Assembly: GCF_042675905.1 (NCBI RefSeq)
Contig: NZ_JBHTJZ010000011.1
Location: forward strand, 54,636 to 118,635
Reading direction: 5' to 3'
Length of the DNA: 64,000 nucleotides
Origin: Paenibacillus chungangensis
Lineage (GTDB): Bacteria; Bacillota; Bacilli; Paenibacillales; Paenibacillaceae
A program made the translations under genes and the position numbers. Shown piece after piece: positions 2,264 through 19,639 of this stretch. How positions within the stretch are numbered: the first letter of the stretch is position 1; every line of letters begins with the position of its first letter. The notes under the pieces were generated by a model. That model saw only the letters and a list, made by a program, of their open reading frames with translations, did not search any database and was not told the DNA's origin.

Positions 2264-5200
2264 TCATTCTTTTACAGACACCGCTTGTATGGCCCCATAA
2301 GCCCAATGATTGGAAGGTACATCATTCCATATCGGTGCCCCATCTGCATCAGGTTCAATACCCAGCAGCTCATTCATCATCTTGACGGCTTCGGCTCTTG
2401 TCAAGGACTGATCGGGACGGAATGTGCCGTCCATATAGCCGCTTATGACACCAAGAGCCTGCAGCTTCGCAACCGTCTCCTCCGACCAGTGACCATCCAT
2501 ATCAGAGAATGCCGCGGAAGAGCTATTCGCGCTTGACTCAAGTACACCGGCTACAGCAACTCCATTGATGGCTGCTCTGCTCTCTTGCTCCGCGCTTTCA
2601 ATCAGCTGCAGCAGCACGGTTGCCATTTCTGCGCGCGTTATCGCCCTGTCCGGCTTGAAGCCTCCATCGGGATATCCCTTCATCCATTGCAATTGAATCG
2701 TCTGCAGCACGGATGAATGCGCCCAGTGACTTCGTGGAACATCGTCGAAGAATACTCTGTCTTCAGATGGACTGCTTCCAGCATCTGTATCACTGCCGGC
2801 AATGCGCGAGAGCATGGCTGCGACTTCCGCACGCGTGACAGGGTTATTCGGTCGGAAGGTTCCGTCTTCATAGCCATGCATATACTTTGGAACAGCTGCA
2901 ACCTCTACCTCTTGCCAGCCTTGTACTTGAACCATTGTGAACACGCTGAATGAATCGACTTCAATTCGCAATCCCTTCTGGCCCGAGCGATTCATATCTA
3001 CGACTTCACCGCCTACAAGAGACCTGCTGCCGTCACTATGCTCAATATATACGCCTAGTTGTCCCCATTCCGCTTCATCGTACACATCCGGGTCAATAGG
3101 CAACGTTAACATAACAAGCTTGCCCTGCAGATTGGTCTCGATTCTGATGGGACGGCCAATTGCTTCAATCCCTTCATTCCGTTCAACCTCTGCAATTGCC
3201 TCATCAGTATTGGCTCTGCTCTCAATAGCCATTTTCTCGTCATCCGAGCGCAGCGGCGTAATTCGGAAGTAGATGCCCTCATTCAACTGCTGCAACGAAG
3301 CTGCCGGAATAACCACCTTCACATTGCCATTGGCAAGTACAAGCTCGACATCCGCTTCAGATAGCAGCTGCGCCGCTTCCTGATCGATGTTGAATAGCCA
3401 TTCGCCGACTTCATCTTCTTCGTCAGGCATCGGTATAACCGCGACTTTAGAACCACCTCCGGCACTGTCAAGTCGTTCGATTATTTCTTTTGTCTTCTGC
3501 TCATCCAGATGAAGCTCATCTTGTATTGTCCCGTTCGATTGCTTCGTCCGTATAATGCTCAGCTTCACGCCTGGACGTTCATCCTGTTCGCCATCGGCAC
3601 CAACGGTGACTTCAATCGTCTCCCCAAGCGTTCCTCCAGTCGAAGACGATCCGCCGCGCCCCCCTTCCTTAGTTGTAACCGTAAGCTGAATCGTATTCGA
3701 CTCCACCGACATGCCATTCAACTTCACGGTAGCGAAGAGTTCGGTTGAGCCCGCTTGCATGGCCGTAACGACGCCCTCACCGTCTATACTTGCCACTACC
3801 GGATTGCCGACTGTATAGCTAATCTCCGCGCCGGACAAGTCCTTCGTCGTGCGATCCTTCTCCAGCAGACCGAGCAATTCAATCTTGGTCGTCTCGCCTA
3901 CCTCAAGCTCAGCCGCTTCAATCGACAGCTCTGCGCCTGTCAGCTTCAAGATCAGCTCATCAATAGTGTACTTATATAAATTAGGAGACTCCGGATCGGT
4001 ATACATATAGAAGCTGCCGAAGTCATCTTGTGCAAGCTTGCGCACTCCGGAAGCCAATACGGTAACTTCCTTCGTCGCAGCATCTACCTTAAAGAACTTC
4101 CCGGCGACTGTGGCATATACATTGCCGTCCGTGCCCGTCTCCATCGAACCGTCGATCCAACGGCCGACCGCTCCCGGGAATGCGTTCTGGCTATGAATGA
4201 CTTGTCTCGTCACAGTATCGAAGATGAACAACTCACCGTTAGCCAGCCCCCATACATTGCCGTCCGGTCCGAGATGCAGAGCGGTAATTGCTTGTCTGCC
4301 CGGCGCAGGCACCGTCTCGAACACAATCTCCTTATTCAGCACATCCCATACGAACAGTCTCGCTTCAGTCGCTGTCGGCACACCGCCCTGTCCGCCATGA
4401 ATGGACGTGCCGCCATACAGAAGCCCATCCTTGTATACCAAGGAGAGAACGCTCTGGTTCGGTATTATATTCTCGTATACTTCAGGCTCGCCGCGCTCTT
4501 TCAGATCATAGACCGCCAACGCTCCGCCCAGCATGCCGTTCTTCGGCACTGTACCGACGAATAGCTTGTTGTAATCTTCCGCGCCCGCCATTCCGAATGG
4601 CCGATCCTGATTCAAGTCGCCAAGTGTGAAGAGGCGATTCGGATTCAGCTTGTCGGCGTTCGTGCGGTTCCATGGCTGCGCCAGATCGTATTCCATAATC
4701 GACGCGCCGGGATATACGCCAAGATAGAGCTTGTTATGAATAACGGTCATGCCTTCGCCCTGGCCGATGCCTTCATAATACATACTGTCGCCCGTGGAAG
4801 GGGTATATACGCCGAGATTGCCTTGCAAGTAACCGGCTGTATAGATTTTTCCATCCGGTCCTTTCACAATCTCATGGATGTTGACAGGTTCTGCCGGCAC
4901 TTGAATATCGGTCAGCCTGACCGCTCCCGTCTCCAGGTTGTACTTGAACATCTTCCCTGAATTGCCGGATAAGCCGACAAGACTATAACCCGGGAAGCCC
5001 GCTTCATTCAGCTCCACGAACGCATAGCCGATTGCCGCGCCTTCAATGGAAGCGCCTGTCGAACGATAGCTATTCGTATCCAGATCATATTCGAACAATT
5101 CACCGCCAGCCCCGGCGAAGTAAAGCTTGTTCGCAACCGGAGACACCGGCGACATGCCGCGCGAGAAATTAATGAACGTCGTCGACTTCTCGCCTGTATC

Positions 5201-7528
5201 GGCGTTCGTCACCTCGACCAGGTCGCCGCTCGCAATATCGACAACGAATGTTTCGTTGCCGTTGTTCGCTTCCTTGCGTGCGAACAATCGGCCATCGGCA
5301 AGATTAAGATCATAGACGGATACAATGTTTTCGAAGCCAGCGGGAAGCAGGTCGCGCTTGGCCCCTGTCGCCAAATCGTACTCCAGCAGCCGGGGTACAT
5401 TGCCTACACCGGCGTAGATCTTATGTGTCTCCTCATCGTACACGGTCACTCGCGTCCAGCGTTCACCGCTCGTAAGTGTCGACATCGTTCCGTAATCGGT
5501 ATAGGCATTCGTCGAAGGATCGTACGCATACAGATGCGCAGTCGGATACGTACTGCCGTACATGACGCCGTCCTTCCCTGCCGCCATCGGATAAAGCACG
5601 GAATCCTTCGTAGAGAGAGGATGTCCCAGATTAACCAGTTCGTCCGTTGACGGAATATAGCGATATAGCAAGCCCAGATTATAGGCGCCCATATATACCG
5701 AACCGTCACTTGACATCGTAACCGACCATGCGCCGGATGTATCAGGCATCGGAATGCTCTTGACAACTTGCTCGGTCTCAATATCGATCATAGTGAATAT
5801 GGACGGAGCCCCCGCCACAACGGAGTAGACCACATCTCTTCCCTCTCCATCCTTGCCGACAGCGCCGCGCATCATGGTCGCCTTGCGAATTTGCGGTCCC
5901 AGATTTTCTCCGAGGATCGTGATGGAATCTTCCGGAAGCGGCTCTTCTTTCATCTCGTGATTGCCGCGCATCAGCTGAATATTATCGATATAATAGGAAT
6001 ACGTTCTACGATCACTGCCGGCGAACAGAATCGCGGCATAATGCGCTCCCTCCGGCGCTTCAGCTACAATATACTGATCGAACCATTCGCCGAATGGCTC
6101 GCCTGCAATGTTCCAGCTTTGTTTATTCATATACGCACCGTTCTCATCGAAGAAGCGTAAGTACATATCCGCCGAGCGCGTCTCGACCAGGCTGCGCGAT
6201 ACTGCGGTGTAGGTCGCCCCGGCTTCGACGGGAATGAGATCACTGATTACATTGATGTATTGTCCCGGCGTATTCTTAATATGGAGACTGTATTCTCCTT
6301 CATCCTTGTACTCACTTGACAGTGTGAACGAGTCAGCATCAGCCGGCTTCGTCTTGCTCCAGCCAGGAATGACGCCATCTGATACCGGTTGTTCGAAATT
6401 ACCGTTGACCACTTGCTTCAGGACGCTCACTTCATCCACATAGAAGGTGAAGGAGCGTTTGGCTCCGGTTATAAGCGCAACCTTAAGCTTCGCACCGCCC
6501 GGCTGCACTGTGAACGCTTGCTGAATATATTTCCATTTGCCATCGGGTTTTGTCTCCGCTGCGTACATATGGAAGTCTTTGTTATCCGCGCTTTTCACCA
6601 GCTCACCGTTCTTGTCGTACACATACACGTAGAAACCTTGAATCCCGCCAAGCTCAAGCAACACTTGCGCCGAGAACACATAAGTCGCATTCTCCTCCAC
6701 ATCCATCAGATCAGATTCAATGTTGATCGCGCTTTGGCCCTGGTTCTCCACCAAGTGCAGCTTCAGACTGTTGTTACCGACAGCCGCCTGCTCGGAGCTG
6801 ACCGTCGGCGTTCCCGACTTGATTGTCCAATTGGGGATCATGCTGTCGGCGCCGCTTTCCTCAAAGCTTGCATTAGCAAGGAAGCGCACAGGATCGGAAG
6901 GCTCCGGTTCCGGTTCTTCAGGGACTGCTTGCTTCGTGACCACCATATTGTCCCAATAGCTCACGCCTCTTGAAGATTTCGCGTTAACCACAACAACGGA
7001 AGCGCTCACAGCTTCTGCCGGGGCGATATCGCTGACCGTTATCGTTTGCCATACGTTCGTCGGCGCATTTTGATAGTTGTCATTATGTGTTTTAATCGGT
7101 TGCAAGAGCACATCGTTTTCTCCATAATAACGGATTTGCAATTGAATATTAGAACCGCTGCCAATATAGACAGAAGAGGTTACGGTGTATAATTTTCCTT
7201 TTTCAACAGCGAACTTGTCGCTGTCCATGCCAAATAGTGACGTATTGTCGTTATCGGTTATTTTCAGACTCCAATTTCCTTCAAGTACATTCGTGGAATC
7301 GACGGTAACCGATCCATTTTTACCTACGCCAAAGTTTTGCGTCCAGCCCGGTATTGCTCCGTCTACCTCTCCCTCCTCAAACCCGAAATTAAACAGCTCC
7401 TCTTGTATAACCGGAGGTTGGGCCAATTCCGCCCGCACCGCAGCTTGCGGTGTTCCAGCCATAGAAAGCGCTACCATAACCATACATAAAAAGACAATAA
7501 ACGACTTCCCCCTACCTGTAAAGCGCAC
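2264..7528 (-). CDS. Giant S-layer-anchored surface protein: signal peptide, 3 CBM4/9-like modules, about 700-aa beta-propeller, Big_2 domain, Gly-rich linker, unknown domain, 3 C-terminal SLH domains
   Basis: Open frame of 1,760 aa. Signal peptide (M)RFTGRGKSFIVFLCMVMVALSMAGTPQAAVRA. SLH motifs FDDVPRSHWAHSSV, FSDMDGHWSEETV and WNDVPSNHWAYGAIQ. Big_2-like stretch ELSIEAAELEVGETTKIELLG. A probable GTG start at 7528 is preceded by GGGAGAGAGG, and the track ORF extends to a TTG at 7546. Confidence 0.8.
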   Translation of the reverse strand: MRFTGRGKSFIVFLCMVMVALSMAGTPQAAVRAELAQPPVIQEELFNFGFEEGEVDGAIPGWTQNFGVGKNGSVTVDSTNVLEGNWSLKITDNDNTSLFGMDSDKFAVEKGKLYTVTSSVYIGSGSNIQLQIRYYGENDVLLQPIKTHNDNYQNAPTNVWQTITVSDIAPAEAVSASVVVVNAKSSRGVSYWDNMVVTKQAVPEEPEPEPSDPVRFLANASFEESGADSMIPNWTIKSGTPTVSSEQAAVGNNSLKLHLVENQGQSAINIESDLMDVEENATYVFSAQVLLELGGIQGFYVYVYDKNGELVKSADNKDFHMYAAETKPDGKWKYIQQAFTVQPGGAKLKVALITGAKRSFTFYVDEVSVLKQVVNGNFEQPVSDGVIPGWSKTKPADADSFTLSSEYKDEGEYSLHIKNTPGQYINVISDLIPVEAGATYTAVSRSLVETRSADMYLRFFDENGAYMNKQSWNIAGEPFGEWFDQYIVAEAPEGAHYAAILFAGSDRRTYSYYIDNIQLMRGNHEMKEEPLPEDSITILGENLGPQIRKATMMRGAVGKDGEGRDVVYSVVAGAPSIFTMIDIETEQVVKSIPMPDTSGAWSVTMSSDGSVYMGAYNLGLLYRYIPSTDELVNLGHPLSTKDSVLYPMAAGKDGVMYGSTYPTAHLYAYDPSTNAYTDYGTMSTLTSGERWTRVTVYDEETHKIYAGVGNVPRLLEYDLATGAKRDLLPAGFENIVSVYDLNLADGRLFARKEANNGNETFVVDIASGDLVEVTNADTGEKSTTFINFSRGMSPVSPVANKLYFAGAGGELFEYDLDTNSYRSTGASIEGAAIGYAFVELNEAGFPGYSLVGLSGNSGKMFKYNLETGAVRLTDIQVPAEPVNIHEIVKGPDGKIYTAGYLQGNLGVYTPSTGDSMYYEGIGQGEGMTVIHNKLYLGVYPGASIMEYDLAQPWNRTNADKLNPNRLFTLGDLNQDRPFGMAGAEDYNKLFVGTVPKNGMLGGALAVYDLKERGEPEVYENIIPNQSVLSLVYKDGLLYGGTSIHGGQGGVPTATEARLFVWDVLNKEIVFETVPAPGRQAITALHLGPDGNVWGLANGELFIFDTVTRQVIHSQNAFPGAVGRWIDGSMETGTDGNVYATVAGKFFKVDAATKEVTVLASGVRKLAQDDFGSFYMYTDPESPNLYKYTIDELILKLTGAELSIEAAELEVGETTKIELLGLLEKDRTTKDLSGAEISYTVGNPVVASIDGEGVVTAMQAGSTELFATVKLNGMSVESNTIQLTVTTKEGGRGGSSSTGGTLGETIEVTVGADGEQDERPGVKLSIIRTKQSNGTIQDELHLDEQKTKEIIERLDSAGGGSKVAVIPMPDEEDEVGEWLFNIDQEAAQLLSEADVELVLANGNVKVVIPAASLQQLNEGIYFRITPLRSDDEKMAIESRANTDEAIAEVERNEGIEAIGRPIRIETNLQGKLVMLTLPIDPDVYDEAEWGQLGVYIEHSDGSRSLVGGEVVDMNRSGQKGLRIEVDSFSVFTMVQVQGWQEVEVAAVPKYMHGYEDGTFRPNNPVTRAEVAAMLSRIAGSDTDAGSSPSEDRVFFDDVPRSHWAHSSVLQTIQLQWMKGYPDGGFKPDRAITRAEMATVLLQLIESAEQESRAAINGVAVAGVLESSANSSSAAFSDMDGHWSEETVAKLQALGVISGYMDGTFRPDQSLTRAEAVKMMNELLGIEPDADGAPIWNDVPSNHWAYGAIQAVSVKE

Positions 7529-7588
7529 AATCCTCTCTCCCTTCAAAATAATGTTTGCCTTGAAAAAATAGTGAACATACCTTTACAG

Positions 7589-7605
7589 ACATGTATATTA
7601 CATGT
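7589..7605. promoter_or_regulatory. Perfect palindrome acatgta-tat-tacatgt in the divergent control region; candidate operator
   Basis: 7-bp arms, reverse-complementary, with a 3-nt centre, between the giant SLH gene start and the ABC operon. Confidence 0.2.
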
Positions 7606-7701
7606 ATGCGCAATTGGAAGTCAAGCTTTATTTTCTATCAACTTTCTCCCAAATAATTTTACCGAAAATATTGACAGTCCATGAAATATGGATTAACTTA
7701 T

Positions 7702-7721
7702 ATACAGGTAAAATACAGGTA
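7702..7721 (+). promoter_or_regulatory. Direct repeat ATACAGGTA x2 between a putative promoter (TTGACA at 7671) and the SD of permease 7757
   Basis: ATACAGGTA at 7702..7710 and again at 7713..7721. SD AAAGGGAGG at 7734..7742. Confidence 0.2.
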
Positions 7722-7756: not shown

Positions 7757-8659
7757 ATGAGCAAACTACTAAACAGAATGAAACGCGAGCGATATATTTA
7801 CTTACTGCTTCTTCCGGGAGTTTTGTATTTTATTCTATATCGTTATGTGCCGATGGCCGGCTTAATTATCGCATTTCAGGATTATAATCCGTTCGCCGGC
7901 TTCAAAGGCAGTGAGTGGATTGGACTCAGTCACTTTACCCGAATGTTTGAGAGCAGCGAAGTCATTCAAGTATTGGTGAACACCATACAAATCTCATTGC
8001 TGCAAATCTTTGTCGCGTTTCCGGTATCCATCATACTGGCTCTCATGCTTAACGAAATGCGCAACGAATTGTACAAACGTTTTATTCAATCCATGATTTA
8101 CTTGCCTCACTTCTTGTCTTGGGTAGTCGTTGTTGGCATCTTCGTCGTTTTCTTGCGTGGCGAAGGGCTGGTCAACTCACTTCTTGCAAGCTTTGGATTG
8201 GAAGCGATTCCTTTTCTAACAGATCCGTCCTACTTTAAACCCATTATTATTATTCAGGTGATTTGGAAGGAAGCTGGATGGGGCACGATTATATTTTTGG
8301 CAGCGTTATCAGGCGTCAATCCTTCCTTGTACGAGGCTGCCGTCATCGACGGCGCCAATCGCTGGCGGCAGCTGTGGCATGTTACCTTGCCGGCCATTCG
8401 CAGCGTAATCGTTATTTTGTTCATCCTTCGTCTCGGTAACGTCATGGATACCGGATTTGAACAAATCTTCCTCATGCTCAATCCCTTCAATATGGATGCG
8501 GGCAATGTGCTTGATACTTATGTTTATTTTAAAGGCATACAGCAAGGCAATATCGGATTTGCAACTGCGGTCGGAATGTTCAAGGGGTTGGTCGGTCTTG
8601 TGCTCGTACTGGGAGCCAATAAATTGGCCAAACGGTTTGGAGAAGAGGGACTTTATTAA
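7757..8659 (+). CDS. Carbohydrate ABC transporter permease, LplB-like
   Basis: 300 aa and multi-TM. LPHFLSWVVVVGIFVVF motif, paralogue of 345..1277. Confidence 0.85.
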   Translation: MSKLLNRMKRERYIYLLLLPGVLYFILYRYVPMAGLIIAFQDYNPFAGFKGSEWIGLSHFTRMFESSEVIQVLVNTIQISLLQIFVAFPVSIILALMLNEMRNELYKRFIQSMIYLPHFLSWVVVVGIFVVFLRGEGLVNSLLASFGLEAIPFLTDPSYFKPIIIIQVIWKEAGWGTIIFLAALSGVNPSLYEAAVIDGANRWRQLWHVTLPAIRSVIVILFILRLGNVMDTGFEQIFLMLNPFNMDAGNVLDTYVYFKGIQQGNIGFATAVGMFKGLVGLVLVLGANKLAKRFGEEGLY

Positions 8660-8688: not shown

Positions 8689-9567
8689 ATGATAAAAAGA
8701 ACACCACTAGATCGGGCTGTCGATTGGATCAATATTATTCTTCTTACGATTGCAGCCGGATTCATGCTCTTGCCGTTCGTTCATATTTTTGCAGTTTCGT
8801 TCTCATCCTTGCAGGATGTGCTTCAGAAGGACTTTATTCTATGGCCTACGAACTGGGCTATTGAGTCATACCAAGCAATTTTCGCATCCAATTCCTTCAT
8901 CCGTTCTATACTAGTCACCATCTATATTACGGTTATCGGGACGGCAGTCAGCTTGTTCTTGACGTCCACGATGGCTTACGGGCTTACTCGCAATGTCATT
9001 GGACAGCGAGTGGTGTTGCTTCTAGTCATTTTCACGATTTTGTTCAATGCAGGCATGATTCCTGTCTATCTCATCGTAAAGGAAACTGGATTGATGAATA
9101 CGCTATGGGCGCTCATTATCCCCAGTGCGATCAGTTCCTTCAACCTCATCGTCATCAGACAGTTCTTCCTCAGTATTCCAAGCGAACTGACAGAAGCTGC
9201 CCTAATCGACGGCGCCAGTGAGATGAAGACGTTCTGGTCCATCATCCTGCCGTTGTCCAAACCGGCACTGGCCACATTCGGCTTGTTCTATGCCGTAGGT
9301 CATTGGAACAAATACTTTGAGGGCATTCTTTACTTGAACGATGCAGCCAAATGGCCCGTGCAAGTCGTATTGCGACAGATCGTCATTATGAACGAAGCAA
9401 CCTCGACCCTGGGCGCTGATGTCATGCTGCAGTTCGAGAACCAGCCCCCGCCGGCTACCATTCAGATGGCTGCCATATTAGTGGCGACCTTGCCGATTCT
9501 ACTTGTCTATCCATTCTTGCAGAAGCATTTCGCCAAGGGGGTGATGATTGGCTCCGTGAAAGGCTAG
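8689..9567 (+). CDS. Carbohydrate ABC transporter permease, LplC-like
   Basis: 292 aa and multi-TM. EAALIDGASEMKTFW motif, paralogue of 1288..2166. Confidence 0.85.
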   Translation: MIKRTPLDRAVDWINIILLTIAAGFMLLPFVHIFAVSFSSLQDVLQKDFILWPTNWAIESYQAIFASNSFIRSILVTIYITVIGTAVSLFLTSTMAYGLTRNVIGQRVVLLLVIFTILFNAGMIPVYLIVKETGLMNTLWALIIPSAISSFNLIVIRQFFLSIPSELTEAALIDGASEMKTFWSIILPLSKPALATFGLFYAVGHWNKYFEGILYLNDAAKWPVQVVLRQIVIMNEATSTLGADVMLQFENQPPPATIQMAAILVATLPILLVYPFLQKHFAKGVMIGSVKG

Positions 9568-9640
9568 AAGCTTCGGAATTCAAGTACATGTATCGCGTTT
9601 GAAGAGAACAACAAATCACGATTCGGAGGGGATCATTTCC

Positions 9641-11251
9641 ATGCACAGGTACGTTAAAAAGTCACTTGTCCTGTTAGCACTCACGATGGCAGTAACGGCA
9701 TGCTCCAACAATAACACGCCGCCGACTGGAACAGAAAAACCCGCGGGCGGAGCAACTGCAGAGCCGACCGCTGCGGCCACCGAAAAGCCGGAAGAAACGT
9801 ACAAAATTACAGGAGCGACTTATATATTCGGCAACCCGCCACCGAAAGACGGCCGCGGTCAACAAATGCTGAATGAGAAGTTCAATGTTGACTACTTCGC
9901 GGAGAAAATCCCGAATGACAATTTCGTCGAGAAAATAACGGCTATGGTTGCAGGCGGCAATATGCCGGATCAAATCAGCTTCCGCGCGGCCAATATCGAC
10001 CTGTTCAATCGCTGGGCCAAGCAGAACGCCTTCTTGCCGCTGAACGACTACATTGAGGAATTCGACTACTTGAAAGAAATTCCTGATGAGCTATGGCTTC
10101 CATTCACCGTGGACGGCAAAATCTATGGTATTCCAACCTGGTCTCCTGTCGAGTCGCAATCGTTCATGGTGCGCAAGGACTGGCTGGACAATCTCGGCCT
10201 TGAAGTCCCGACAAGCTATGAGGAATTGAAGGAAGTGGCGATCGCCTTCACCAATGGTGATCCCGACAAGAACGGTCAGAACGATACTTACGGTCTGGCT
10301 ATCGGACAGAACATTAACCCTACTTTCTCCATGGGGCCATATTGGCAGCATGATACCTGGTACCATCAGGATGCGGAAGGCAACTTTCTTCCAGGCTTGA
10401 TCTCCGATGGCAGAAAAGAACTCATTCAATTTTTTAGCGACCTTTACGCAGAGAAAGCGTTGACAAGCGATTTTGCCGTCGTCAACTGGGCCGACACCAA
10501 CAATGAATTCTACTCCGGCAAAGCGGGAGCGTTCCTGATCGCAGTCCGTGGAATGTCGCAAGATTATATGAAGACATTGCTTGAAATTAATCCGGGCGCA
10601 GAATTTGTCGTGCTGGAACCGTTCGCAGCGCCAGACGGCTCACAAGGCTTCTCCGCAGGACAGGGTTATGGAAGAATGCTTGCCCTTAATGCGAAGCTGG
10701 CCGACAATCCGGACAAAGTGCGCAAAATGCTGGAAATTCACGGCTTCTCGCGCAACTATTATCAAGCTTCCAAAAACTCTTCCGACAATGAAGATTTCGA
10801 CTGGTTCTACGGCAATGAAGGTACCGGCTATACGCTTGACAAGAACAACACACGCGTTCCATTGAACGAACCTGCTGCCGGGGTTGAGCCGTTCTTATAC
10901 TTCCTAGACAGTACAGCATGGATCTCCGCCGATGACGATGCGGAATACCCGCGTGCCTATTCGGAGCCTAAGCTAATTGAAGCTACTCAGCAGCTTGTTG
11001 ACATTAATAAAAAGTACAAACTATACTACCCGCCGCATGTCGGCATCATCTCGCCTGCCGAGATTGAGTTCGGTCCTGAATTGACGCAAATGTTAATGAA
11101 TGAGCAAACCAAAATGATTACAGGCAATCGTCCTATCTCGGATTGGGATGCGATGGTAACAGAATATATGGATCGCGGCGGCAAAAAAATCATTGAAGAG
11201 TACAACGCCGAGATCAAAGCAAGAGGTTATAGCGATCGAATTTGGAAATAG
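9641..11251 (+). CDS. Extracellular solute-binding lipoprotein (LplA/family-1 SBP-like)
   Basis: GGAGGGG SD then ATG at 9641. [25 protein letters not shown] lipobox. About 535 aa, typical of an oligosaccharide-binding protein. Confidence 0.8.
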
Positions 11252-11256
11252 GACCA

Positions 11257-11293
11257 ATATGTTGGGCTCTACAAAAGCCCAACATATTTTTTA
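11257..11293 (+). terminator. Rho-independent terminator after the SBP gene
   Basis: 12-bp perfect stem atatgttgggct/agcccaacatat, 7-nt loop, then TTTTTT. Confidence 0.7.
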
Positions 11294-11330
11294 TCCACTA
11301 TCTCCATTACTTCAACAAAAGGTTGTGACA

Positions 11331-13031
11331 ATGATGCCTGCAGCAGCTCGATTAGCCGTATGGATTGATAAGGAAACACAAAAGCATAGACACCGATATG
11401 GCGTCAACGTCTTTCAAAATAATATTCGAGAAATGCTCTCTCACTCCGGGTTCACCTATACCGTTCTGGAAAGTGCAGAACAAATCACTCGTCAGGAAGC
11501 GGATATTGTCATTGCCGCATTGGTTAGCGAGCGAGAAGAAGATATGACGCTTCTCAAGCAATTCATGCTGGAAGGAGGCACCGTAATATCTTACGCAGGA
11601 ATGACCCCGCTTGCCGCCGAATTATCTTGCACGCCGATGAGGCCGCTGCCTGTCGGCTACGCCGAGCTGCACACTGGCTGGTATGAGGACGTTCCTCTAC
11701 GTTGCTTTGATAGCCGACCTTGGGAACTGGCAGATGCCACTGATGCTTCGGTCTCACAGATCGGGACGCTTCGTCAGGATCATCCCGAAGGATTGCGCTG
11801 CGGTATGCTGCTGCAAAGCTTCCAAGTCGGCGAGGGTAGACTGGAGCGCTGGGCTGTTGATATTCCCGCAACTGTAGTAAGACTACAGCAGGGCAGCATG
11901 CCGATCGTATCAGATGGTCTTCCGGCGCCGGATGGAACAGGCGCTGTAAATGACTGGATTCTGAAAGCCGACGACGATGTGCAGCAGGACTGGGAATACG
12001 ATCGCCTGTCTACCGAGACGGGAATGGCGTACTTCGCTCATCCTTATGCCGACTTATGGAAGCAAGTCATCGCCGGACATTTGATCACAGTCGCTGCCGA
12101 ACAGGGTCTCATTCTGCCATTCGTCGATTACTGGCCAGACGGTGTCGATCGCATCGCTATGATCTCGCATGACAGCGACCTTAATATCGACGAGGCGGCG
12201 GAGATTACGCTGCAAGTGTTGAAGGAACACGATGTGCAGAGTACATGGTGCATGATCGAACCGGGGTTCTCCCCGCATCTCTATGATCAGATCAAAGCAG
12301 ACGGTCATGAGCTTGCTTTGCATTACAACGCGCTGGAGAAAGACAATGGCTTCTGGGACGAACAGGAATTCGTCAGGCAGTTGGAATGGTTCCTGTCTGC
12401 TGCAGATGTCCCGCAGTCCGAATCCAATAAAAATCATTATACACGCTTTGAAGGCTGGGGCGAGCTGTTCGACTGGTGCGAGAAACACGGCATTGCATCC
12501 GATCAATCAAGGGGGCCCAGCAAAAAAGGAAATATCGGTTTTACATTCGGAACATGCCATCCTTACTTCCCTATCGCCTGGTCCGATCAACAGAATCGCA
12601 TGTACGATGTATTGGAGATCGGCTTCCTCACCCAGGATCTGGACCATAGCACGTTGGCCGACAGCAGTGTCATTGCGCCATTCCTGGAAGGGGTCAGCAA
12701 GGTGAGCGGGGTCGCACATTTCTTGTTTCATCAAACGCATATTTTGGAGCAGCCCAAGGTTCGCGAAGCCATCATGAAAGTGATAACAGAATCGAAGCGT
12801 CGCGACTTCCAATTTTGGACTGGACGTCAAATCAATCATTGGGTCCGCGCAAGACGACAGCTTCGCTTCGAAGGCATAGATAAGTGCGGAAATATGCTGT
12901 ATGATAACCCCGCGAGCATCAGCGGCGCTGTTGTATGGACCCCGCTTCTTGCGGAAGATGCGGCACGGCTCGAGCCTGATCATGTTCAATTGAAATTCGG
13001 CTTGCCTTGCAGGAAATCGATAATCGAATAA
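11331..13031 (+). CDS. Two-domain protein: N-terminal class-I glutamine-amidotransferase-like fold plus C-terminal polysaccharide deacetylase (CE4/NodB-like)
   Basis: Probable start [13 protein letters not shown] after the terminator (the track ORF from 11193 runs back through it). Deacetylase-like stretch [38 protein letters not shown]...HELALHYN. Confidence 0.5.
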
Positions 13032-13053
13032 ACGCAGATGAGGTGAAGTCCAA

Positions 13054-14295
13054 GTGAAGCTTTCGCATAAACTCGCCATTCATGGTGGAGAAAAAACAAA
13101 GAAAAATCCTTTCGGCACCGGAAAACGATTCGGTGCTGAGGAAGCGCAGCAGTTATTAGAAGCTTTGGAGCAAAACACATTATTCTATCATTTCGGAAGC
13201 AAGGTAAAACAATTTTTGTCCGACTTCAATACCATGTACAGTGTTCCATATAGCGTTGCCACCTCGTCAGGGACAGCCGCTTTACACGTAGCGCTTGGCG
13301 CTGCCGGAGTGTCTGTAGGGGATGAGGTGATTACAAGTCCGATTACGGATCAAGGCACAGTTATTGGCATTTTGTATCAAAACGCCGTTCCTGTATTCGC
13401 TGATCTGGAGCCCTATTCATTTAACCTGGATCCCAAATCCATTGAGGCGTGCATCACTCCGCGAACGAAGGCGATCGTCGTTGTCCATCTGGCGGGCAAC
13501 CCATGCGATATGGACCCCATTATGGAAATTGCCAGAAAATATAATGTAAAAGTAATCGAAGACTGTGCGCAGGCATACTTGACCAAATATAAAGGCAGAC
13601 TCGTCGGTACGATCGGTGATTATGGCTGCTTCAGCACGAATGATTTCAAGCATATCTCGACAGGAGACGGCGGCATTGTAACCGTCAATTCGGGAGATGA
13701 GGCAGATTACCACCTTACGCATGCTTTCGCCGATAAAAACTATAAACGTCTGGGCAATGATCTGAACCGAATGCCTGAGAGCCTCGCGCCCAATTATCGG
13801 ATGACAGAACTGCAAGGCGCAGTTGGCATCGCGCAGCTAACAAAAATGGAATGGATATGTGAACAAAGAACCCGATTCGGCAATGCCATTAATGAAGGTC
13901 TGCAAGGCTTGAAAGGGTTGACCCCCATGCAGGTGGCAGCAGATAATACTTGTACTTATTGGTTCTACATGTTCCGGCTGAACGAAGAAAATCTAAACTG
14001 TACCCGCGAGCAATTCTGCGACGCCCTGCATGCGGAAGGCATTACGAATCGCATGGGCTATATCCCTGACGTCGTCTATATGCAGCCCATGTTTCAAAAC
14101 AAGCAAGCTTATTTGAACAGCCAGTTTCCTTTCGACTTGACTGACACGACTTATAAGAGAGGCGATTGCCCGGTTGCGGAAGCGATTTTGCAAACGGCAG
14201 TGCAAGTGCCGATTAGTGAATTTTACACGAAAGAAGATATTGCGGAAGTTATTGCGGCCATACGCAAAGTAACCTTATACTTTCAGAAACTGTGA
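13054..14295 (+). CDS. DegT/DnrJ/EryC1/StrS-family PLP-dependent sugar aminotransferase
   Basis: GTG start with GAGGTGAAG SD. Motifs GDEVITSPITDQGT and STNDFKHISTGDGG (PLP lysine). 413 aa. Confidence 0.8.
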   Translation: MKLSHKLAIHGGEKTKKNPFGTGKRFGAEEAQQLLEALEQNTLFYHFGSKVKQFLSDFNTMYSVPYSVATSSGTAALHVALGAAGVSVGDEVITSPITDQGTVIGILYQNAVPVFADLEPYSFNLDPKSIEACITPRTKAIVVVHLAGNPCDMDPIMEIARKYNVKVIEDCAQAYLTKYKGRLVGTIGDYGCFSTNDFKHISTGDGGIVTVNSGDEADYHLTHAFADKNYKRLGNDLNRMPESLAPNYRMTELQGAVGIAQLTKMEWICEQRTRFGNAINEGLQGLKGLTPMQVAADNTCTYWFYMFRLNEENLNCTREQFCDALHAEGITNRMGYIPDVVYMQPMFQNKQAYLNSQFPFDLTDTTYKRGDCPVAEAILQTAVQVPISEFYTKEDIAEVIAAIRKVTLYFQKL

Positions 14296-14314
14296 GAAAA
14301 GGGAGAGCGGTTCA

Positions 14315-16192
14315 ATGAGCTTTACTGATCTGGGCATTCCTGTAGATGCGGTGGAATCGAGAACCGGGGCCGTATGCGTGAACTCCGCAGGCGACAGCCG
14401 CATCGTCATAGCTGCAAAAGGCTTCTTGCTCGTAGCGGACCCCGTATCGGGGGATTGCCGGCAGTTGTTCTTCCCCGACCATCATTCCGAATATCCATAC
14501 GACACTTTCAGCAGCCGATGCGGCATGCTTTATGTGGGAGCCGGCAACAGATTTTACGTCTTCGATCCCTTCCGGCTCCACTATATAGACACGCTGTTCG
14601 CTGACGATGAGAACGAGCTCTGCGGCTTCAGCTACGCGGAGAATGAAGAAGGACATATCTACATGACTTCTTACCCGCAGAGCAAGCTTTACCGTTATCG
14701 ACCCATTGAACGGGACTTCGTCTGTATGGGCAGTATGGATCCAGAGCAAAAATACCCTTCGCACATGGCTGTTGATGCCTACGGCTGGGTTTATATAGGT
14801 ACGGGTACAACCAAAAAAAACATTGTCGCCTATCACCCTGCAGACAGCTCGACTCCTCGATCCCTGCTTCCAGATGAGCTCAGAACGATCGGCATCGGCG
14901 TCGTCAGACAAGCCGGTGCGCCTCAGGCGCCCTGCAATCGGGTATACGCTCAATTAGGCGAGCAATGGGTGCTGCTGGAGCAAGGGGGGATCGTCGGGCA
15001 TGTGCGCGATGAGGAGGTCCCCGCCTCCTCATACAACGGAGCCAGCTTCGCGAAGTTCCATCGCCAGCTTCCCGGAGACTGGGAGCTCATTAGCCACAGT
15101 CTATCGAATAGGGAACTGCTATTGCGTCACCGCCATACCGGGCAAGCAAGGCGGATAGAGCTCCGCTATTCATCGGAGGGAGCGGCGCTGTCGCCGATTG
15201 TCGCCGGAGCGGATGGCTGCTTGTACGGCACGTCTAACCATCCGCTGCATTTCTTCACCTATCAACTGGTTGACCCTACTGGAGAATCCTCACACGATTC
15301 CCAAGCCGGAGATTCTTCCAGACTGCACAATCTGGGGCCTAGAATCGTAAAGGGCGGCAATCTGGCCGCTTATGCCGTGCAGAGGAATATTCTCGCAGGC
15401 GCTGCGTACCCTGGCGGAGGGCTGTATCTCTTCGACACATCGAAGCCATTGCATTCGGCGAATGCCGAGCCGAACGGTACGCTTGATGGCTTGCACAACC
15501 CGCGACTCGTCACCGAGCATATCGAAATTCATCGTCCCAGATGCGCCATTGCGCTGCAGGACGGTGAACATATCGCTTATGGCGGATTTCCGGGCTACGG
15601 CATGGTCGGCGGAGCACTATGCGTCTACCATCTGCCTACTGGCAAGGATCATCTTCTGCTGCATACGGAGCTGGTTCCCAATCAGAGCACAGTCTCTCTT
15701 GTCGAGACAGCTCCCGGCATTCTAATTGGCGGCACGAGCGTTGAGACGCCGGGCGGAGCGGAGCCACTATCGCCGACAGCGCGCCTATATATGCTTAATT
15801 GGAAGGAACGTGACGTGATGCGGATCTGGAAGCTTCATGACCGGATTCGCGAATATTCCCATCTTCTGATGGATGCAAGAGGCAGGCTGCATATCCTGAC
15901 CTCTTGCTCCACTTATTATGTGTGGGACCCCGTGCATGAATCCATTGTGTGCGAGGAAGACCTGTCGGCATGGGGGACTGTTGTCAGACAAGGCTGGGAG
16001 ATGAGCGAAGAGGACGATTGCATATACGGGGCGCTCAGCCAGGCTCTATTCCGCATCCCGCTTAGCAGCATGAAGCCCGAACGAATAGCCATCCCTCCAG
16101 GCCATGTTACAGCGGGCTTCGTCAAGCATAACACGGAGTTGTATTTTGCAATCTCCACCCATTTATGGAGATACACATTGCCAAAGAGGTGA
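14315..16192 (+). CDS. Cytoplasmic beta-propeller protein, paralogous to the propeller module of the giant SLH protein
   Basis: No signal peptide. Shared blocks LYRYRP versus LYRYIP, and LVPNQSTVSLVETAPGILIGGTSVETPGGAEPLSPTARLYMLNW versus IIPNQSVLSLVYKDGLLYGGTSIHGGQGGVPTATEARLFVWDV. Confidence 0.6.
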   Translation: MSFTDLGIPVDAVESRTGAVCVNSAGDSRIVIAAKGFLLVADPVSGDCRQLFFPDHHSEYPYDTFSSRCGMLYVGAGNRFYVFDPFRLHYIDTLFADDENELCGFSYAENEEGHIYMTSYPQSKLYRYRPIERDFVCMGSMDPEQKYPSHMAVDAYGWVYIGTGTTKKNIVAYHPADSSTPRSLLPDELRTIGIGVVRQAGAPQAPCNRVYAQLGEQWVLLEQGGIVGHVRDEEVPASSYNGASFAKFHRQLPGDWELISHSLSNRELLLRHRHTGQARRIELRYSSEGAALSPIVAGADGCLYGTSNHPLHFFTYQLVDPTGESSHDSQAGDSSRLHNLGPRIVKGGNLAAYAVQRNILAGAAYPGGGLYLFDTSKPLHSANAEPNGTLDGLHNPRLVTEHIEIHRPRCAIALQDGEHIAYGGFPGYGMVGGALCVYHLPTGKDHLLLHTELVPNQSTVSLVETAPGILIGGTSVETPGGAEPLSPTARLYMLNWKERDVMRIWKLHDRIREYSHLLMDARGRLHILTSCSTYYVWDPVHESIVCEEDLSAWGTVVRQGWEMSEEDDCIYGALSQALFRIPLSSMKPERIAIPPGHVTAGFVKHNTELYFAISTHLWRYTLPKR

Positions 16193-16197
16193 CATAA

Positions 16198-17237
16198 TGA
16201 GCTATCAGCTATCACAGCTTTCCGAAGAGACCTTCCCACATCTTCTCAATGGTATTGCTGACCCGACCGCATGGGAAGCGAAGCGAGACCGCATTGCCGA
16301 AGTATGGCGCCAATACATCGGATGGATGCCTGATCGCGTGCCTTCCTCTTATACGGTTCATTCCGAGCATAGGGAAGGGGATCATATCCGCATTCATCTA
16401 TCCTATGAGACTGCTTATCGCGATCTCGTCTACGCCTATTTGCTAATTCCTATCAAGAACGCAGCAAGCGAGTCGACGGAATCACAGCGGTATCCGGCTG
16501 TATTGGCGCTTCATCCGACCGATAGCAGAGGCAAGGCCGATATCGCGTTAAGTACGGGGAGAGAGGGACGTCAGTATGCGCTTGAGCTTGTAACCCGGGG
16601 ATATGTCGTGCTGGCCCCTGACACCATCGCGGCGGGAGAGCGCATCTATCCGGGTACGGCAGCGTTTCAGACTGCACCGTTCTATGAACAATTTCCAGAA
16701 AGCACCGCAGTAGGTAAAATGATTCATGACCATAAACAAGGCATTGACCTGCTGCAGTCGCTCCCTTATGTGGACCCGGACCGGATCGGCGCCATCGGTC
16801 ACTCACTCGGAGCATATAACGCTTATTTCCTGGCGGCCATGGATGACAGAATAAAAGCTGTCGTATCCAGCTGTGGATTTTGCCCATTCCTGTATGATCC
16901 CGATCCGAATCGTTGGGGACAGCGCGACTGGTTCTCTCATTTCCCTAGGTTAACCAATGCTATTCAAGAAGACCGGATTCCGTTCGAATTCCATGAAATA
17001 ATGGCACTAATGGCGCCGACACCTATATTCAACTGGTTTGCTCAACAAGACAAAATATTTCCGAACTGGCACGCCGCCGCATTTGCTTCAATGGACATTC
17101 ACCGCTTATATCAATGGATGGGACGAGCAGACGCTTACATCTCTTTAATGGGCTGTGAAGGTCATGATTTCCCCAAGCATATTCGACCCGTAAGCTATCA
17201 ATTTCTTGATCACTGGTTAAGGAATTATGATGTATAA
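16198..17237 (+). CDS. Alpha/beta hydrolase (dienelactone hydrolase/esterase-like)
   Basis: AAAGAGGTG SD then ATG at 16198. Nucleophile elbow GHSLGA in IGAIGHSLGAYNAYFL. Confidence 0.65.
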
Positions 17238-17299
17238 TGTATATATCATTAGTCCATATAATGGATAAAAGCTGATTTAGATTTAGGAGCGGATGGATT

Positions 17300-18748
17300 G
17301 TGCTACGGAGAAAAGATGATTTTGCAAGGCGGTATGAAAAATTCAAAAATGATCTCCGAGGAGAGATAGTAAGCGGAACGATTAAACCAAACGAATTTAT
17401 ATTGCCGGAAAACACATTAAGCGAACGTTATCAGCTTAGTCGTGTCTCTGTCCGCAAAGTATTGGCGGAGCTCGTCGAAGAAGGGCTCATTGAGAAAATT
17501 TCCGGAAAAGGCAACCGAGTCACAGTTCCGGCTAAAGGATTGGAAAGCAAGGAAACGATAAAACTATCCTGGTTCTCTACCTCGTATGAAATAGATATTG
17601 TTCGTGAGATTATACAGCAATATGAGCGCTCTCAGCCATTCGCCAATATTGATTTGACGATCATTCCTGAATCAGGATATGTGGAAACGCTGACTCAGCT
17701 CATTGAGAATGATGATGGGCCAGACGTATTCATGATTTCCGACAGTCAATTTCGTGAATGGGTGGATATGGAGAAAACGCACCTTTTCCATCCCTACCTA
17801 TCAGCTGACATGCACCCGGAAACGGACAGCTATCCAAGTGTATTCAACCTGTTTGAACATGAAGGACAGGCCATCATCACACCGTTCCTGTTCTCTCCGG
17901 TTGTCATCTGCTACAACGAGAATTTAATTGATCCCGCAAGCGTTCATGAGAAGCAGGCATTTGCCAATTGGGATACATTGCTGGAAACAGCCAAGATGAG
18001 TACGATTTATTCAGAAGACGACGAGCGTATTAATCACTATGGCTTTTGCTTCTCTTCATCACCGCATAGATGGCCCGTCTTCATGCTGCAAAATGAAGGG
18101 ACTTTACTATCGGACAACGAGGAAAGCAATAGGGGCAATGCCAATACGATTGAATCATTGCAGTTCTGCCTTGATTTGATGTATAAGGAGCATGTGTCCC
18201 CGATTTATTCGCACGGCAGCGAGTTTTTGGCTGAATCGCTGTTCGCGAAAGAACGGGTAGCGATGATTCTGAGCACGTATTACTTTATGAACGAGTTCAG
18301 AGGTAGCTCGATTCCCTGGAACGTGAGGCTGCTGCCCAAGCAAAAAACGGAAGGCACACTCCTGCTTGGCGGCGGACTGGCGCTGAACAAGAAAAGTCCT
18401 CGGCGCAAGCTGGCCCAAAGCTTTATCGACTATATGGTCAGCGCGGAAGCACAAACGCTGTTGAAAAAGCGTGGTTGCACGATACCGGCCCGCAAGGAAA
18501 TTGCGGAAAACGATAAGCTGTTAAATCCGCAAATTCATCCCAGGGATTATAATATTTTCAAAGAAATGATGCCCTATGCGGTTCCGCTGCTAAAACTGGG
18601 ACTGTCCCATAGCGAGATCAATATGATGCGAAATGAACTCCAGTTAATGTGGATGAATATGGAGAGCCCTCGCGATGCTTGTCCCCGGATTGCAAGACTT
18701 ATCCATGAACAGCGTGCTGCCGGCCGATATGCGAAGACCAGAGGCTGA
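17300..18748 (+). CDS. GntR-family transcriptional regulator fused to a periplasmic-binding-protein-like sensor domain
   Basis: GTG start after AGGAGC. N-terminal winged HTH (SERYQLSRVSVRKVLAELVEEGLIEKISGKGNRV). About 400-aa C-terminal SBP-like domain. Confidence 0.7.
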   Translation: MLRRKDDFARRYEKFKNDLRGEIVSGTIKPNEFILPENTLSERYQLSRVSVRKVLAELVEEGLIEKISGKGNRVTVPAKGLESKETIKLSWFSTSYEIDIVREIIQQYERSQPFANIDLTIIPESGYVETLTQLIENDDGPDVFMISDSQFREWVDMEKTHLFHPYLSADMHPETDSYPSVFNLFEHEGQAIITPFLFSPVVICYNENLIDPASVHEKQAFANWDTLLETAKMSTIYSEDDERINHYGFCFSSSPHRWPVFMLQNEGTLLSDNEESNRGNANTIESLQFCLDLMYKEHVSPIYSHGSEFLAESLFAKERVAMILSTYYFMNEFRGSSIPWNVRLLPKQKTEGTLLLGGGLALNKKSPRRKLAQSFIDYMVSAEAQTLLKKRGCTIPARKEIAENDKLLNPQIHPRDYNIFKEMMPYAVPLLKLGLSHSEINMMRNELQLMWMNMESPRDACPRIARLIHEQRAAGRYAKTRG

Positions 18749-18772
18749 ACCTCTTATGAACGCTGCATCAAT

Positions 18773-18801
18773 TGACAACCCTCGGCCAACCGGTCATAAT
18801 G
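18773..18801 (+). promoter_or_regulatory. Sigma-A-type promoter for the downstream Uma2 gene
   Basis: TTGACA, 17 nt, CATAAT. About 100-nt leader with a gcaataattgc hairpin. SD GAGGGGGA precedes ATG 18901. Confidence 0.4.
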
Positions 18802-18900
18802 AAAGCAATAATTGCTTGAGGAAGCACCTCTGAAGATACGAGACACCTGTGTGTTTCTTCTTTAGGGGTGCTGTTCATATTGAGGGGGATGTTGATTGAT

Positions 18901-19509
18901 ATGAATCGCAACAAAAACGATGAAGATGCAAATCTCGCTAAAAATAAGGATAAGATCCGGGAACAGTCGATCACGTACGAGATGTATGCCGAGCTGCCGG
19001 ACGACGGGCAACGATATGAGATTTTCGACGGAATATTGGAGATGATGTCTCCAGGGCCTTCGCCAAGGCATCAAGATGTAAATAGAGAACTGGAATTTAT
19101 ATTGATGCAGAGCTGCAGGAACGACTATCTCATTTATGATGCGCCTATTGATGTCATTTTAAGCGACAGGAATGTCGTTCAGCCCGATGTGCTAATGATT
19201 CATCGCAGTCGCCTGCAGATCATCACGAAGCGAGGAATCGAGGGGGCTCCTGATCTTGTCGTGGAGATCGTCTCGCCCGGCTCACGCAGCAGGGATCGCA
19301 TCACGAAACTGAGGCTTTACGCCCGACATGACGTTCCCGAATATTGGGTTATTGATGCGGATTCACTCACGCTGGAGCAATACAGGCTGATCGATGGCGG
19401 GCAATATGAGCTGATTAACCTGTTCGAAGGAGACGATCGGGTTTATTCGGACAAGCTGCCGTGCGTCTCATTCTCCGTAAGCGAGATTTTCCGGGAAGTT
19501 CGCGGTTGA
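18901..19509 (+). CDS. Uma2-family (DUF820) putative restriction-endonuclease-like protein
   Basis: Motifs ERYEIFDGILEMMSPGPSPRH and PDLVVEIVSPGSRSRDRITKLRLYARHDVPEYWVID. Confidence 0.75.
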   Translation: MNRNKNDEDANLAKNKDKIREQSITYEMYAELPDDGQRYEIFDGILEMMSPGPSPRHQDVNRELEFILMQSCRNDYLIYDAPIDVILSDRNVVQPDVLMIHRSRLQIITKRGIEGAPDLVVEIVSPGSRSRDRITKLRLYARHDVPEYWVIDADSLTLEQYRLIDGGQYELINLFEGDDRVYSDKLPCVSFSVSEIFREVRG

Positions 19510-19596
19510 GACACTCATTAGATACGCCGTCAACGTCACGCGGTCATCTTCGCTTAGTTGAAACTGCAACTTATTCATAACATTTACCTCCTATGT

Positions 19597-19639
19597 TAAA
19601 AAAGCCACAAAACATAGGTATCCCTAGTATTTTGTGGCT
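19597..19639 (-). terminator. Rho-independent terminator of the sulfatase gene
   Basis: 10-bp perfect stem agccacaaaa/ttttgtggct with a 17-nt loop. The A-run at 19597..19602 on the plus strand is a T-run on the minus strand. Confidence 0.6.

Follow-up and report, generated by a model that had tools for sequence, protein, structure and literature searches.

As constituents of chitin, of bacterial walls and capsules and of biofilm polymers, amino sugars form a major pool of soil carbon and nitrogen, and the catabolic routes known to us take their nitrogen only after the monosaccharide has been released and phosphorylated. The NagA/NagB-type route, a deacetylase followed by a deaminase, needs a phosphorylated free monosaccharide. 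Routes of glycoside breakdown through keto-sugars, using Gfo/Idh/MocA and xylose-isomerase-like proteins, also exist, and we know of no described example that includes a transaminase. At the level of gene organization, the Gram-positive LplABC- or Yes-type CUT1 glycan operons of Bacillus and Paenibacillus unite an importer, its cognate regulator and intracellular enzymes. Here we analysed a 64,000-nucleotide stretch of the Paenibacillus chungangensis genome (contig NZ_JBHTJZ010000011.1, positions 54,636 to 118,635), hereafter the window, which carries an eight-gene operon combining an ATP-binding cassette (ABC) importer and a regulator with a protein of carbohydrate esterase family 4 (CE4) fold and an aminotransferase of the DegT/DnrJ/EryC1/StrS family (DegT). 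We lean towards reading it as a substrate-inducible glycan-utilization locus for a poly- or oligosaccharide containing N-acetylated amino sugars.

In the Ong pathway for oxidized chitin, OngB deacetylates N-acetylglucosaminate (GlcNAc1A) and OngC deaminates glucosaminate (GlcN1A) to 2-keto-3-deoxygluconate (KDG) (PMC9537276). Both NagA/NagB and Ong share their logic with the route proposed here, in that the acetyl group is removed first and the nitrogen second, leaving a keto or 2-keto-3-deoxy product. They employ other enzyme families and release nitrogen as ammonia through isomerizing or eliminating deaminases acting on monosaccharides, whereas the proposed pyridoxal phosphate (PLP)-dependent transaminase would pass it to a 2-oxo acid, possibly from an unphosphorylated or glycosidically bound sugar. 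In organization, the locus resembles CUT1-type operons in its two BPD_transp_1 permeases, large lipoprotein, missing ATPase gene, putative sugar-responsive regulator, surface-anchored protein bearing carbohydrate-binding modules (CBM) and predicted cytoplasmic processing of imported oligomers. Unlike in CUT1-type operons, its cytoplasmic enzymes (CE4-fold protein, DegT, beta-propeller and serine hydrolase) belong to no recognized glycoside hydrolase family, and its regulator is a fusion of GntR with a solute-binding-protein-like domain (GntR-SBP) in place of a LacI, AraC or two-component system. What would set it apart from known systems is a DegT protein in the deaminating slot, a cytoplasmic CE4-fold partner resembling PelA and NDST, a propeller family found inside and outside the cell, and a GntR protein with a type-II binding-protein sensor.

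An eight-gene uptake and probable catabolic operon

Open reading frame (ORF) listing together with Pfam and NCBIfam scans delimited a co-directional operon of eight genes on the + strand (7757-18748) with intergenic gaps of 1-80 nt, preceded by a divergently transcribed gene for a large surface protein. The genes, in window coordinates, are as follows.

2264..7546, - strand, divergent 1760-residue SLH surface protein (CBM_4_9 and SLH Pfam matches)
7757..8659, + strand, ABC permease 1 (BPD_transp_1, Pfam E = 8.8e-19; 64-90% identity across loci of the type A layout described below)
8689..9567, + strand, ABC permease 2 (BPD_transp_1, Pfam E = 1.2e-12)
9599..11251, + strand, extracellular solute-binding lipoprotein (SBP_bac_1, Pfam E = 2.4e-13)
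11331..13031, + strand, CE4-fold (NodB-homology) protein of 566 residues (Pfam match sub-threshold, fold from an AlphaFold model)
13054..14295, + strand, DegT/DnrJ/EryC1/StrS aminotransferase of the clade here called DegT1 (PF01041, E = 5.4e-88)
14315..16192, + strand, 625-residue all-beta protein, predicted tandem propeller (no Pfam or NCBIfam family)
16194..17237, + strand, alpha/beta-hydrolase, DLH/Abhydrolase_7-like (Pfam DLH E = 1.8e-9)
17300..18748, + strand, GntR plus SBP_bac_1/8 regulator (Pfam GntR E = 3.3e-10, SBP_bac_8 E = 1.1e-18)

An earlier note on this DNA had described 11331-17237 as a catabolic-looking operon of a deacetylase, an aminotransferase and a hydrolase. All genes that it named are intact and full-length and lie where it placed them, so far as the enzymes go, and the unit is larger than it had supposed, the 625-residue protein gene (14315-16192) having been skipped within its interval. 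Also new relative to that account are the surface-anchored protein homologous to the propeller and the operator sites, both described below. The idea of a regulated uptake and catabolic operon, as distinct from an envelope-biosynthesis cluster, finds support in its context, through the importer, the regulator and the catabolic neighbours seen in related loci. Within the operon the importer is represented by two permeases and a binding protein, and an ATPase gene is absent; ABC-importer ATPases of Firmicutes are often shared and encoded at other loci. The binding protein probably starts at the ATG at 9641 rather than at 9599, a lipobox-like VTAC following it, and its orthologues measure 527-536 residues.

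The DegT and CE4-like proteins

The aminotransferase matched PF01041 with 296.1 bits against a cut-off of 19.8, over residues 29-404 of 413. Its Schiff-base lysine, within NDFKHISTGDGG, aligns with the lysine within FFGNKIITTGEGG of perosamine synthetase, and the PLP-pyridine aspartate of its IEDCAQA motif aligns with IEDAAEA of the same enzyme. Placed relative to characterized enzymes by identity and score comparisons, it has the family fold, PLP lysine and aspartate in common with GDP-perosamine synthase (3bn1), Kdo8N transaminase (5k8b), BtrR (2c7t) and NtdA (4k2b) at 94-193 bits, its identity to the nearest solved structure being about 36% at most. None of the NCBIfam biosynthetic equivalogs PseC, LegC, WecE, ArnB, RfbH or DesI was reached, PseC coming closest with 199 against 423.5 bits and the rest likewise falling far short. 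The DegT1 clade, in contrast to these distances, is compact, its 56 sequences sharing a minimum of 64% and a median of 71% identity. Neither part of the contrary outcome weighed in the earlier note, a grouping with cell-wall or antibiotic biosynthesis enzymes and constitutive expression of the operon, is indicated, given the missed equivalog cut-offs, the distance to the nearest structure and the invariable setting of DegT1 in regulated uptake clusters. Whereas solved DegT relatives are encoded beside nucleotide-sugar dehydratases, glycosyltransferases and antibiotic genes, DegT1 lies in an uptake operon next to a deacetylase-like gene, and its proposed direction, removal of an amine, is unlike that of the named DegT sugar aminotransferases. 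Family members acting on free or phosphorylated substrates do exist (Kdo8N transaminase, BtrR and NtdA).

Sequence searches of the PDB with the CE4-like protein gave no matches, and the protein scored 15.9 against a cut-off of 240 with the NCBIfam NodB model. An AlphaFold (AF2) model built on 42 homologues, with a predicted local distance difference test (pLDDT) score of 90.3, begins with an alpha/beta domain, continues with a CE4-like barrel and ends in a beta-sandwich, and the modelled barrel has the distorted (beta/alpha) form characteristic of CE4/NodB-homology deacetylases. Foldseek searches with this model retrieved PelA (9cgy, non-hydrolase domains; E = 6e-11), the N-deacetylase of NDST1 (9f6z; 1.8e-8), chitin deacetylase (2vyo; template modelling score, TM(target), 0.71), ArnD and peptidoglycan deacetylases. 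Once the hydrolase domain of PelA is removed, PelA and the CE4-like protein have the same multidomain layout. Residues D281, D283, H326 and H331 are invariant across the 42 homologues, both histidines falling inside the stretch matched by Pfam, and their HxxxxH spacing also occurs in PgaB. The predicted fold supports a likeness to N-deacetylases of alpha-1,4-linked N-acetylhexosamine polymers (PelA, NDST1), and we regard the protein as a putative N-deacetylase. PelA, PgaB and NDST modify polymers during synthesis, whereas the CE4-like protein is cytoplasmic, without a signal peptide, occurs in a catabolic context and matches PF01522 below threshold.

The DegT protein of the window is 100% identical to a database entry from P. 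chungangensis. The genome of this species encodes at least one further DegT1 protein (70% identity) and two further CE4-like proteins (52%), and therefore holds paralogous modules; these three paralogous proteins (P0083, P0253 and P0261) probably share one other contig.

Distribution and conservation of the module

Using a CE4-like profile to scan one genome per species, we confirmed 322 loci, chiefly within Paenibacillaceae, Bacillaceae and Thermoactinomycetaceae, with up to four loci per genome (e.g. P. eucommiae) and with the CE4-like/DegT1 pair as their conserved core; 80 were fetched, and their neighbouring genes were determined by scripted ORF calling and clustering. With this many relatives the arrangement is not rare, and its earlier description as unusual applies to the state of knowledge rather than to frequency. 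Because the eight-gene order is conserved across genera, being identical in Paenibacillus sp. GXUN7292, P. aceti, Cytobacillus firmus and Priestia amid unrelated flanking genes, chance adjacency is excluded. Psychrobacillus and a Bacillus species retain the five enzyme and regulator genes in order, with the transporter genes downstream. In 49 of 82 loci, as counted with crude ORF calling, DegT1 was the immediate same-strand neighbour of the CE4-like gene, and look-ups that started from DegT found ABC/regulator clusters with a CE4-like-sized gene or a gap adjoining DegT in five cases out of five. The deacetylase and aminotransferase, which had been proposed to belong together, thus form a tightly coupled pair. 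ABC permeases were found in 57 and GntR-SBP regulators in 44 of the loci in the 82-locus set, and the hydrolase in 27 related loci.

Two layouts recur. The type A layout, as in the window, was found in about 23 loci and adds the propeller and the hydrolase to the pair; often a surface propeller protein is encoded nearby (13 loci), as may be, with or without it, a cytoplasmic protein of heparinase II/III type (9 loci) that distantly resembles PL15, PL17, PL35 and PL39 lyases. In the type B layout a short Gfo/Idh/MocA-like gene precedes the CE4-like gene, an arrangement seen in 20 loci, accompanied by a further DegT that is unrelated to the first (29-42% identity), an amidase of ceramidase type, a xylose-isomerase-like (AP_endonuc_2) TIM barrel and Gfo/Idh/MocA oxidoreductases, as well as GH123 or GH20 glycosidases and ROK kinase, SIS, NagB-like and NagA-like genes. 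Neighbours in variant clusters also include a tagatose-bisphosphate-aldolase-like gene. By analogy with the keto-sugar routes, with which type B clusters share the Gfo/Idh/MocA proteins and the AP_endonuc_2 TIM barrel, these genes suggest keto-sugar intermediates; the window operon has neither kind of gene. A tblastn search of the window found no heparinase II/III-like, glutamate dehydrogenase, short Gfo-like or ceramidase-like gene.

Nitrogen-handling genes also accompany the module. Four Paenibacillus loci (L003:3043-4422, L011, L012 and L019) have a gene for a presumed glutamate dehydrogenase (Glu/Leu/Phe/Val-type) that runs divergently from the operon, with the operator-like repeat described below upstream; in two further loci (L016 and L026) such a gene adjoins the CE4-like gene without the motif in front. 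The enzyme could regenerate 2-oxoglutarate. In one distant locus a ceramidase-like amidase takes the place of the CE4-like protein, while genes for the propeller, hydrolase, DegT, ABC and GntR proteins are all present. No glycosyltransferase or nucleotide-sugar enzyme was present among the annotated neighbour families, most low-frequency neighbours having been left unannotated. No publication describing the module, or one describing PDB entry 7b0m, was found, prior art in subscription journals being possible.

Two type B clusters from Laceyella and Thermoactinomyces (L030 and L088) encode CE4-like and ceramidase-like amidases, two DegTs, GH123 and an Eis-like GNAT, along with a complete lower pathway of the N-acetylgalactosamine (GalNAc)/N-acetylglucosamine (GlcNAc)-6-phosphate type. 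From this gene content, they may handle a di-amino or doubly N-acylated sugar.

Propeller proteins, surface protein and hydrolase

The 625-residue protein is read as a cytoplasmic protein of two tandem seven-bladed beta-propellers. It gave no PDB match by sequence, and its fold matches were generic, with no specific match to a known glycoside hydrolase or polysaccharide lyase propeller family. BLASTP aligned it with the central region of the divergently encoded surface protein (26% identity over 263 residues, E = 1e-16). The family to which it belongs has no Pfam model, comprises 877 cluster representatives at E <= 1e-30 and reaches Candidatus Hydrogenedentota, many members having N-terminal extensions or extra domains. 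Wholly within the propeller gene, an antisense ORF of 213 residues (14312-14953, minus strand) is most likely spurious.

The 1760-residue surface protein combines a signal-peptide-like N-terminus, two CBM_4_9 domains (Pfam E = 5.7e-18), the central propeller region and three SLH anchors (E = 2.3e-37); against the PDB, the SLH domains alone were matched. Its homologues are encoded next to the module in 13 related loci, and the protein is the likely extracellular binding or depolymerizing component.

For the alpha/beta-hydrolase, which matched DLH (PF01738) with 38 bits against a cut-off of 21, a GHSLG nucleophile elbow, a candidate aspartate (AQQDKIF) and a candidate histidine (GCEGHDF) make up a catalytic triad assigned by position. 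Its best PDB match was weak and partial, to the CE15 glucuronoyl esterase OtCE15A (E = 4e-7). Membership of CE15 was rejected, given the GHSLG motif instead of GCSRxG, a GCE_fung score of 26.5 against a cut-off of 27 and the partial match. The removal of O-acyl groups that had been proposed for this enzyme stays putative, the intact Ser-Asp-His triad being all that can be said for it.

Operator-like repeats, regulator and hairpin

Alignment of the regions upstream of orthologous operons revealed a repeat, TACA(G/T)GTA-N3-TACA(G/T)GTA. Only two sites matching TACAKGTA-N3-TACAKGTA (four strand-wise matches) occur in the 64-kb window, against 0.01 expected, both within the 210-bp divergent region between the surface-protein and permease genes. 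The regulatory features are listed here.

7588..7606, no strand assigned, operator-like site 1, GACATGTATATTACATGTA, 42 nt upstream of the surface-protein start
7671..7699, + strand, candidate sigma-A promoter read from the sequence: TTGACA, 17-nt spacer, TAACTT
7703..7721, no strand assigned, operator-like site 2, TACAGGTAAAATACAGGTA, an exact motif match starting 4 nt past the candidate -10
11256..11295, + strand, stem-loop and U-run between the transporter and enzyme genes

Site 2 likely overlaps the transcription start of the operon, as judged from its position, and in most close orthologous loci a counterpart is conserved 15-21 nt ahead of the permease start. In eight orthologous upstream regions TTGACA is likewise present as the -35 element, in the same place with respect to the operator; the candidate -10 is weak, and the promoter was not picked up by a promoter scan. 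In related loci the repeat was found upstream of permease (n = 23), CE4-like (n = 21) and surface-propeller (n = 13) genes and also of regulator, heparinase II/III-like and glutamate dehydrogenase genes, the equivalent genes of other genera carrying the same upstream repeat. Since both the surface-protein gene and the operon are preceded by it, the regulon includes the surface protein, and the conservation of the repeat argues for inducible rather than constitutive expression.

Co-occurrence suggests that the repeat is recognized by the GntR-SBP regulator. This protein has a GntR winged helix (PF00392; 39.9 bits against a cut-off of 27, residues 12-74) and a C-terminus resembling type-II periplasmic binding proteins (SBP_bac_1/SBP_bac_8, MalE-type; E = 1e-18). 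Pfam detected no UTRA, FCD or aminotransferase domain in it, which places it outside the classical FadR, HutC, MocR, YtrA and AraR subfamilies. A recent origin of the sensor domain by duplication of the transporter's binding protein was considered and rejected, there being no detectable similarity between them. No published description of GntR-SBP fusions was found, with prior art in subscription journals again possible.

Between the binding-protein and CE4-like genes, a hairpin (11256-11288) with a 13-bp stem has a folding free energy (dG) of -19.9 kcal/mol (z = -5.3 relative to shuffled sequences) and is followed by UUUUUUAU, so that the 11256-11295 element has the GC-containing stem-loop and U-run of an intrinsic terminator. 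Of the 22 related loci in which the binding-protein and CE4-like genes adjoin, most have a stem-loop at the corresponding point, and this positional conservation despite differing stem sequences argues for a function. The strong hairpin reported earlier at this position is therefore real and conserved in place. It could act as a partial terminator or as a stabilizing structure protecting the 3' end of the transporter mRNA, and the attenuation suggested for it is plausible. The hairpin matched no Rfam family, and a scan of 2000-22000 gave no riboswitch, leader or other Rfam match.

Proposed pathway and alternative explanations

The favoured reading, utilization of a glycan containing N-acetylated amino sugars, draws on what the analysis shows, namely the families of the genes, the intact catalytic motifs and folds of their products, and the conservation of gene order, repeat motif and hairpin. 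In the proposed mechanism, the SLH-anchored protein would bind the polymer via CBM_4_9 and probably cut it with its propeller region, and the two-permease ABC system and lipoprotein would import the fragments using an ATPase encoded elsewhere. In the cytoplasm the CE4-fold protein would remove the N-acetyl group, DegT would pass the freed amine to a 2-oxo acid, forming a keto-sugar together with glutamate or some other amino acid, and the 625-residue propeller and the serine hydrolase would process the oligomer further. The GntR-SBP protein would occupy the two repeat sites, one at the operon transcription start and one on the surface-protein side, until imported sugar bound at its sensor domain released it, and the conserved hairpin would keep transporter mRNA above enzyme mRNA. 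An aminotransferase acts on a free amine, which most amino sugars in nature, being N-acetylated, do not offer. Deacetylation followed by deamination fits the locus because the amidase-fold protein and DegT1 form a near-obligate pair, the pair is set in uptake operons with amino-sugar genes, and glutamate dehydrogenase is an occasional member of the regulon. The core of the earlier deacetylate-then-transaminate idea is accordingly one that the amino-sugar and glutamate dehydrogenase context favours, as a predicted route.

Several points weigh against this reading. We infer all of the enzyme activities, the direction of transamination, the carbon that bears the amine, the identity of the substrate and the repressor role of the regulator, and the direction of a transaminase is not readable from its sequence. 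The CE4-like protein matches Polysacc_deac_1 (PF01522) over residues 288-331 only, with 17.6 bits under the 23.1-bit cut-off, and its putative Asp-His-His metal triad is assigned from alignment and modelled fold rather than from a solved site. In the type A operon there is neither an obvious enzyme for handling a keto-sugar, such as a reductase, nor a glycoside hydrolase of known family, and the propeller could be a binding protein, not an enzyme. Fetching loci by the CE4-like profile biases the co-occurrence counts, for which the five DegT-first look-ups correct in part. Lastly, the heparinase II/III-like genes that neighbour the module in other species, and which the window lacks, hint at a uronic-acid substrate.

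The alternative that survives best, though we consider it improbable, is that the same machinery serves the salvage or remodelling of the cell's own envelope polymers, such as a secondary cell-wall polymer, teichuronic acid or a spore or biofilm polysaccharide (e.g. Pel-like GalNAc). The SLH anchoring of the surface protein is consistent with this, as are the resemblance of the CE4-like fold to PelA, a biofilm-polymer modifying enzyme, and the legacy 'spore coat protein' names of some homologues; the module is also mainly confined to Bacillales, whose wall polymers are rich in amino sugars. However, CBM_4_9 domains, an importer of its own, a putative repressor that senses sugar and as many as four paralogous clusters in one genome typify nutrient foraging, and no linked synthesis genes were seen among the annotated neighbours.

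More doubtful still is the degradation of an acidic, uronate-type glycan without transamination, the CE4-like and/or DegT proteins having diverged towards O-deacetylation, hydrolysis of a non-sugar amide or PLP-dependent dehydration or elimination. The sub-threshold Pfam score of the CE4-like protein leaves room for such divergence, the dehydratases ColD and E1 are among the members of the DegT family, CE15 glucuronoyl esterases are weakly similar to the hydrolase, and heparinase II/III-like lyase-fold genes adjoin the module in 9 loci. Yet DegT retains the Schiff-base lysine that a histidine replaces in ColD-type dehydratases, the invariant Asp and His residues persist at the metal-site positions of the CE4-like protein, and sister clusters hold amino-sugar catabolic genes.

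Least likely of the three is that DegT aminates, an imported sugar or glycoside being oxidized to a keto-sugar and converted to an amino sugar or amino-glycoside-like product whilst the CE4-like protein has its target elsewhere: the characterized DegT-family enzymes are, to our knowledge, all biosynthetic, solved relatives bear biosynthetic names, a short Gfo/Idh/MocA-like oxidoreductase gene directly precedes the CE4-like gene in 20 loci and a GNAT occurs in Thermoactinomycetaceae-type variants, but the partner of DegT has a deacetylase and not an acetyltransferase fold, the window operon lacks an oxidoreductase, the presence in the regulon of glutamate dehydrogenase, NagA/NagB-like genes and glycosidases points to breakdown, and no export or glycosyltransfer genes were seen.

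Beyond the utilization of an amino-sugar glycan by this one locus, we tentatively put forward a broader possibility, of which we are considerably less confident: that the CE4-like/DegT1 pair constitutes an undescribed, widespread Bacillales route in which imported acetamido sugars are N-deacetylated and transaminated to keto-sugars, with their nitrogen going to glutamate; that the keto group may make the chain cleavable, for example by elimination, by the propeller family as a new glycan-cleaving class; and that GntR-SBP proteins with the repeat operator form a new regulator subfamily. If true, a transaminase route present in hundreds of Bacillales species, often in multiple copies, would be a new branch of glycan and nitrogen turnover and would give the DegT family its first catabolic role. 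It would also provide a function for three unannotated families (the 566-residue CE4-like proteins, the 625-residue propellers and the GntR-SBP regulators), and the enzymes might find use in the preparation of keto- and amino-sugars. The arrangement itself is a solid and widespread observation, and the chemistry proposed for it would be new for catabolism; with a predicted operator and sensor domain, the system is directly testable.

Genes flanking the operon

Downstream of the operon lie the following genes.

18868-19509, + strand, putative endonuclease gene of the Uma2 family, between the operon and the sulfatase/transporter pair
19696-21117, - strand, sulfatase with an SGSH_C (N-sulfoglucosamine sulfohydrolase-like) C-terminal domain (Pfam)

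The sulfatase and a major facilitator superfamily (MFS) transporter form a pair on the minus strand (19696-22373). The sulfatase had been linked to the pathway, and we rejected it as an operon member: it lies on the opposite strand beyond the Uma2 gene, it lacks the operator motif, and none of 87 related loci contains a homologue. The lack of the motif and the absence from related loci mark the pair as a separate unit, and with the link to the sulfatase unsupported, a sulfated substrate is likewise unsupported.

At the other end of the region, a second ABC permease pair (345-2166) ends just short of the 3' end of the surface-protein gene. Sharing 44% and 37% identity with the operon permeases, it is probably part of another sugar-uptake operon that starts outside the window.

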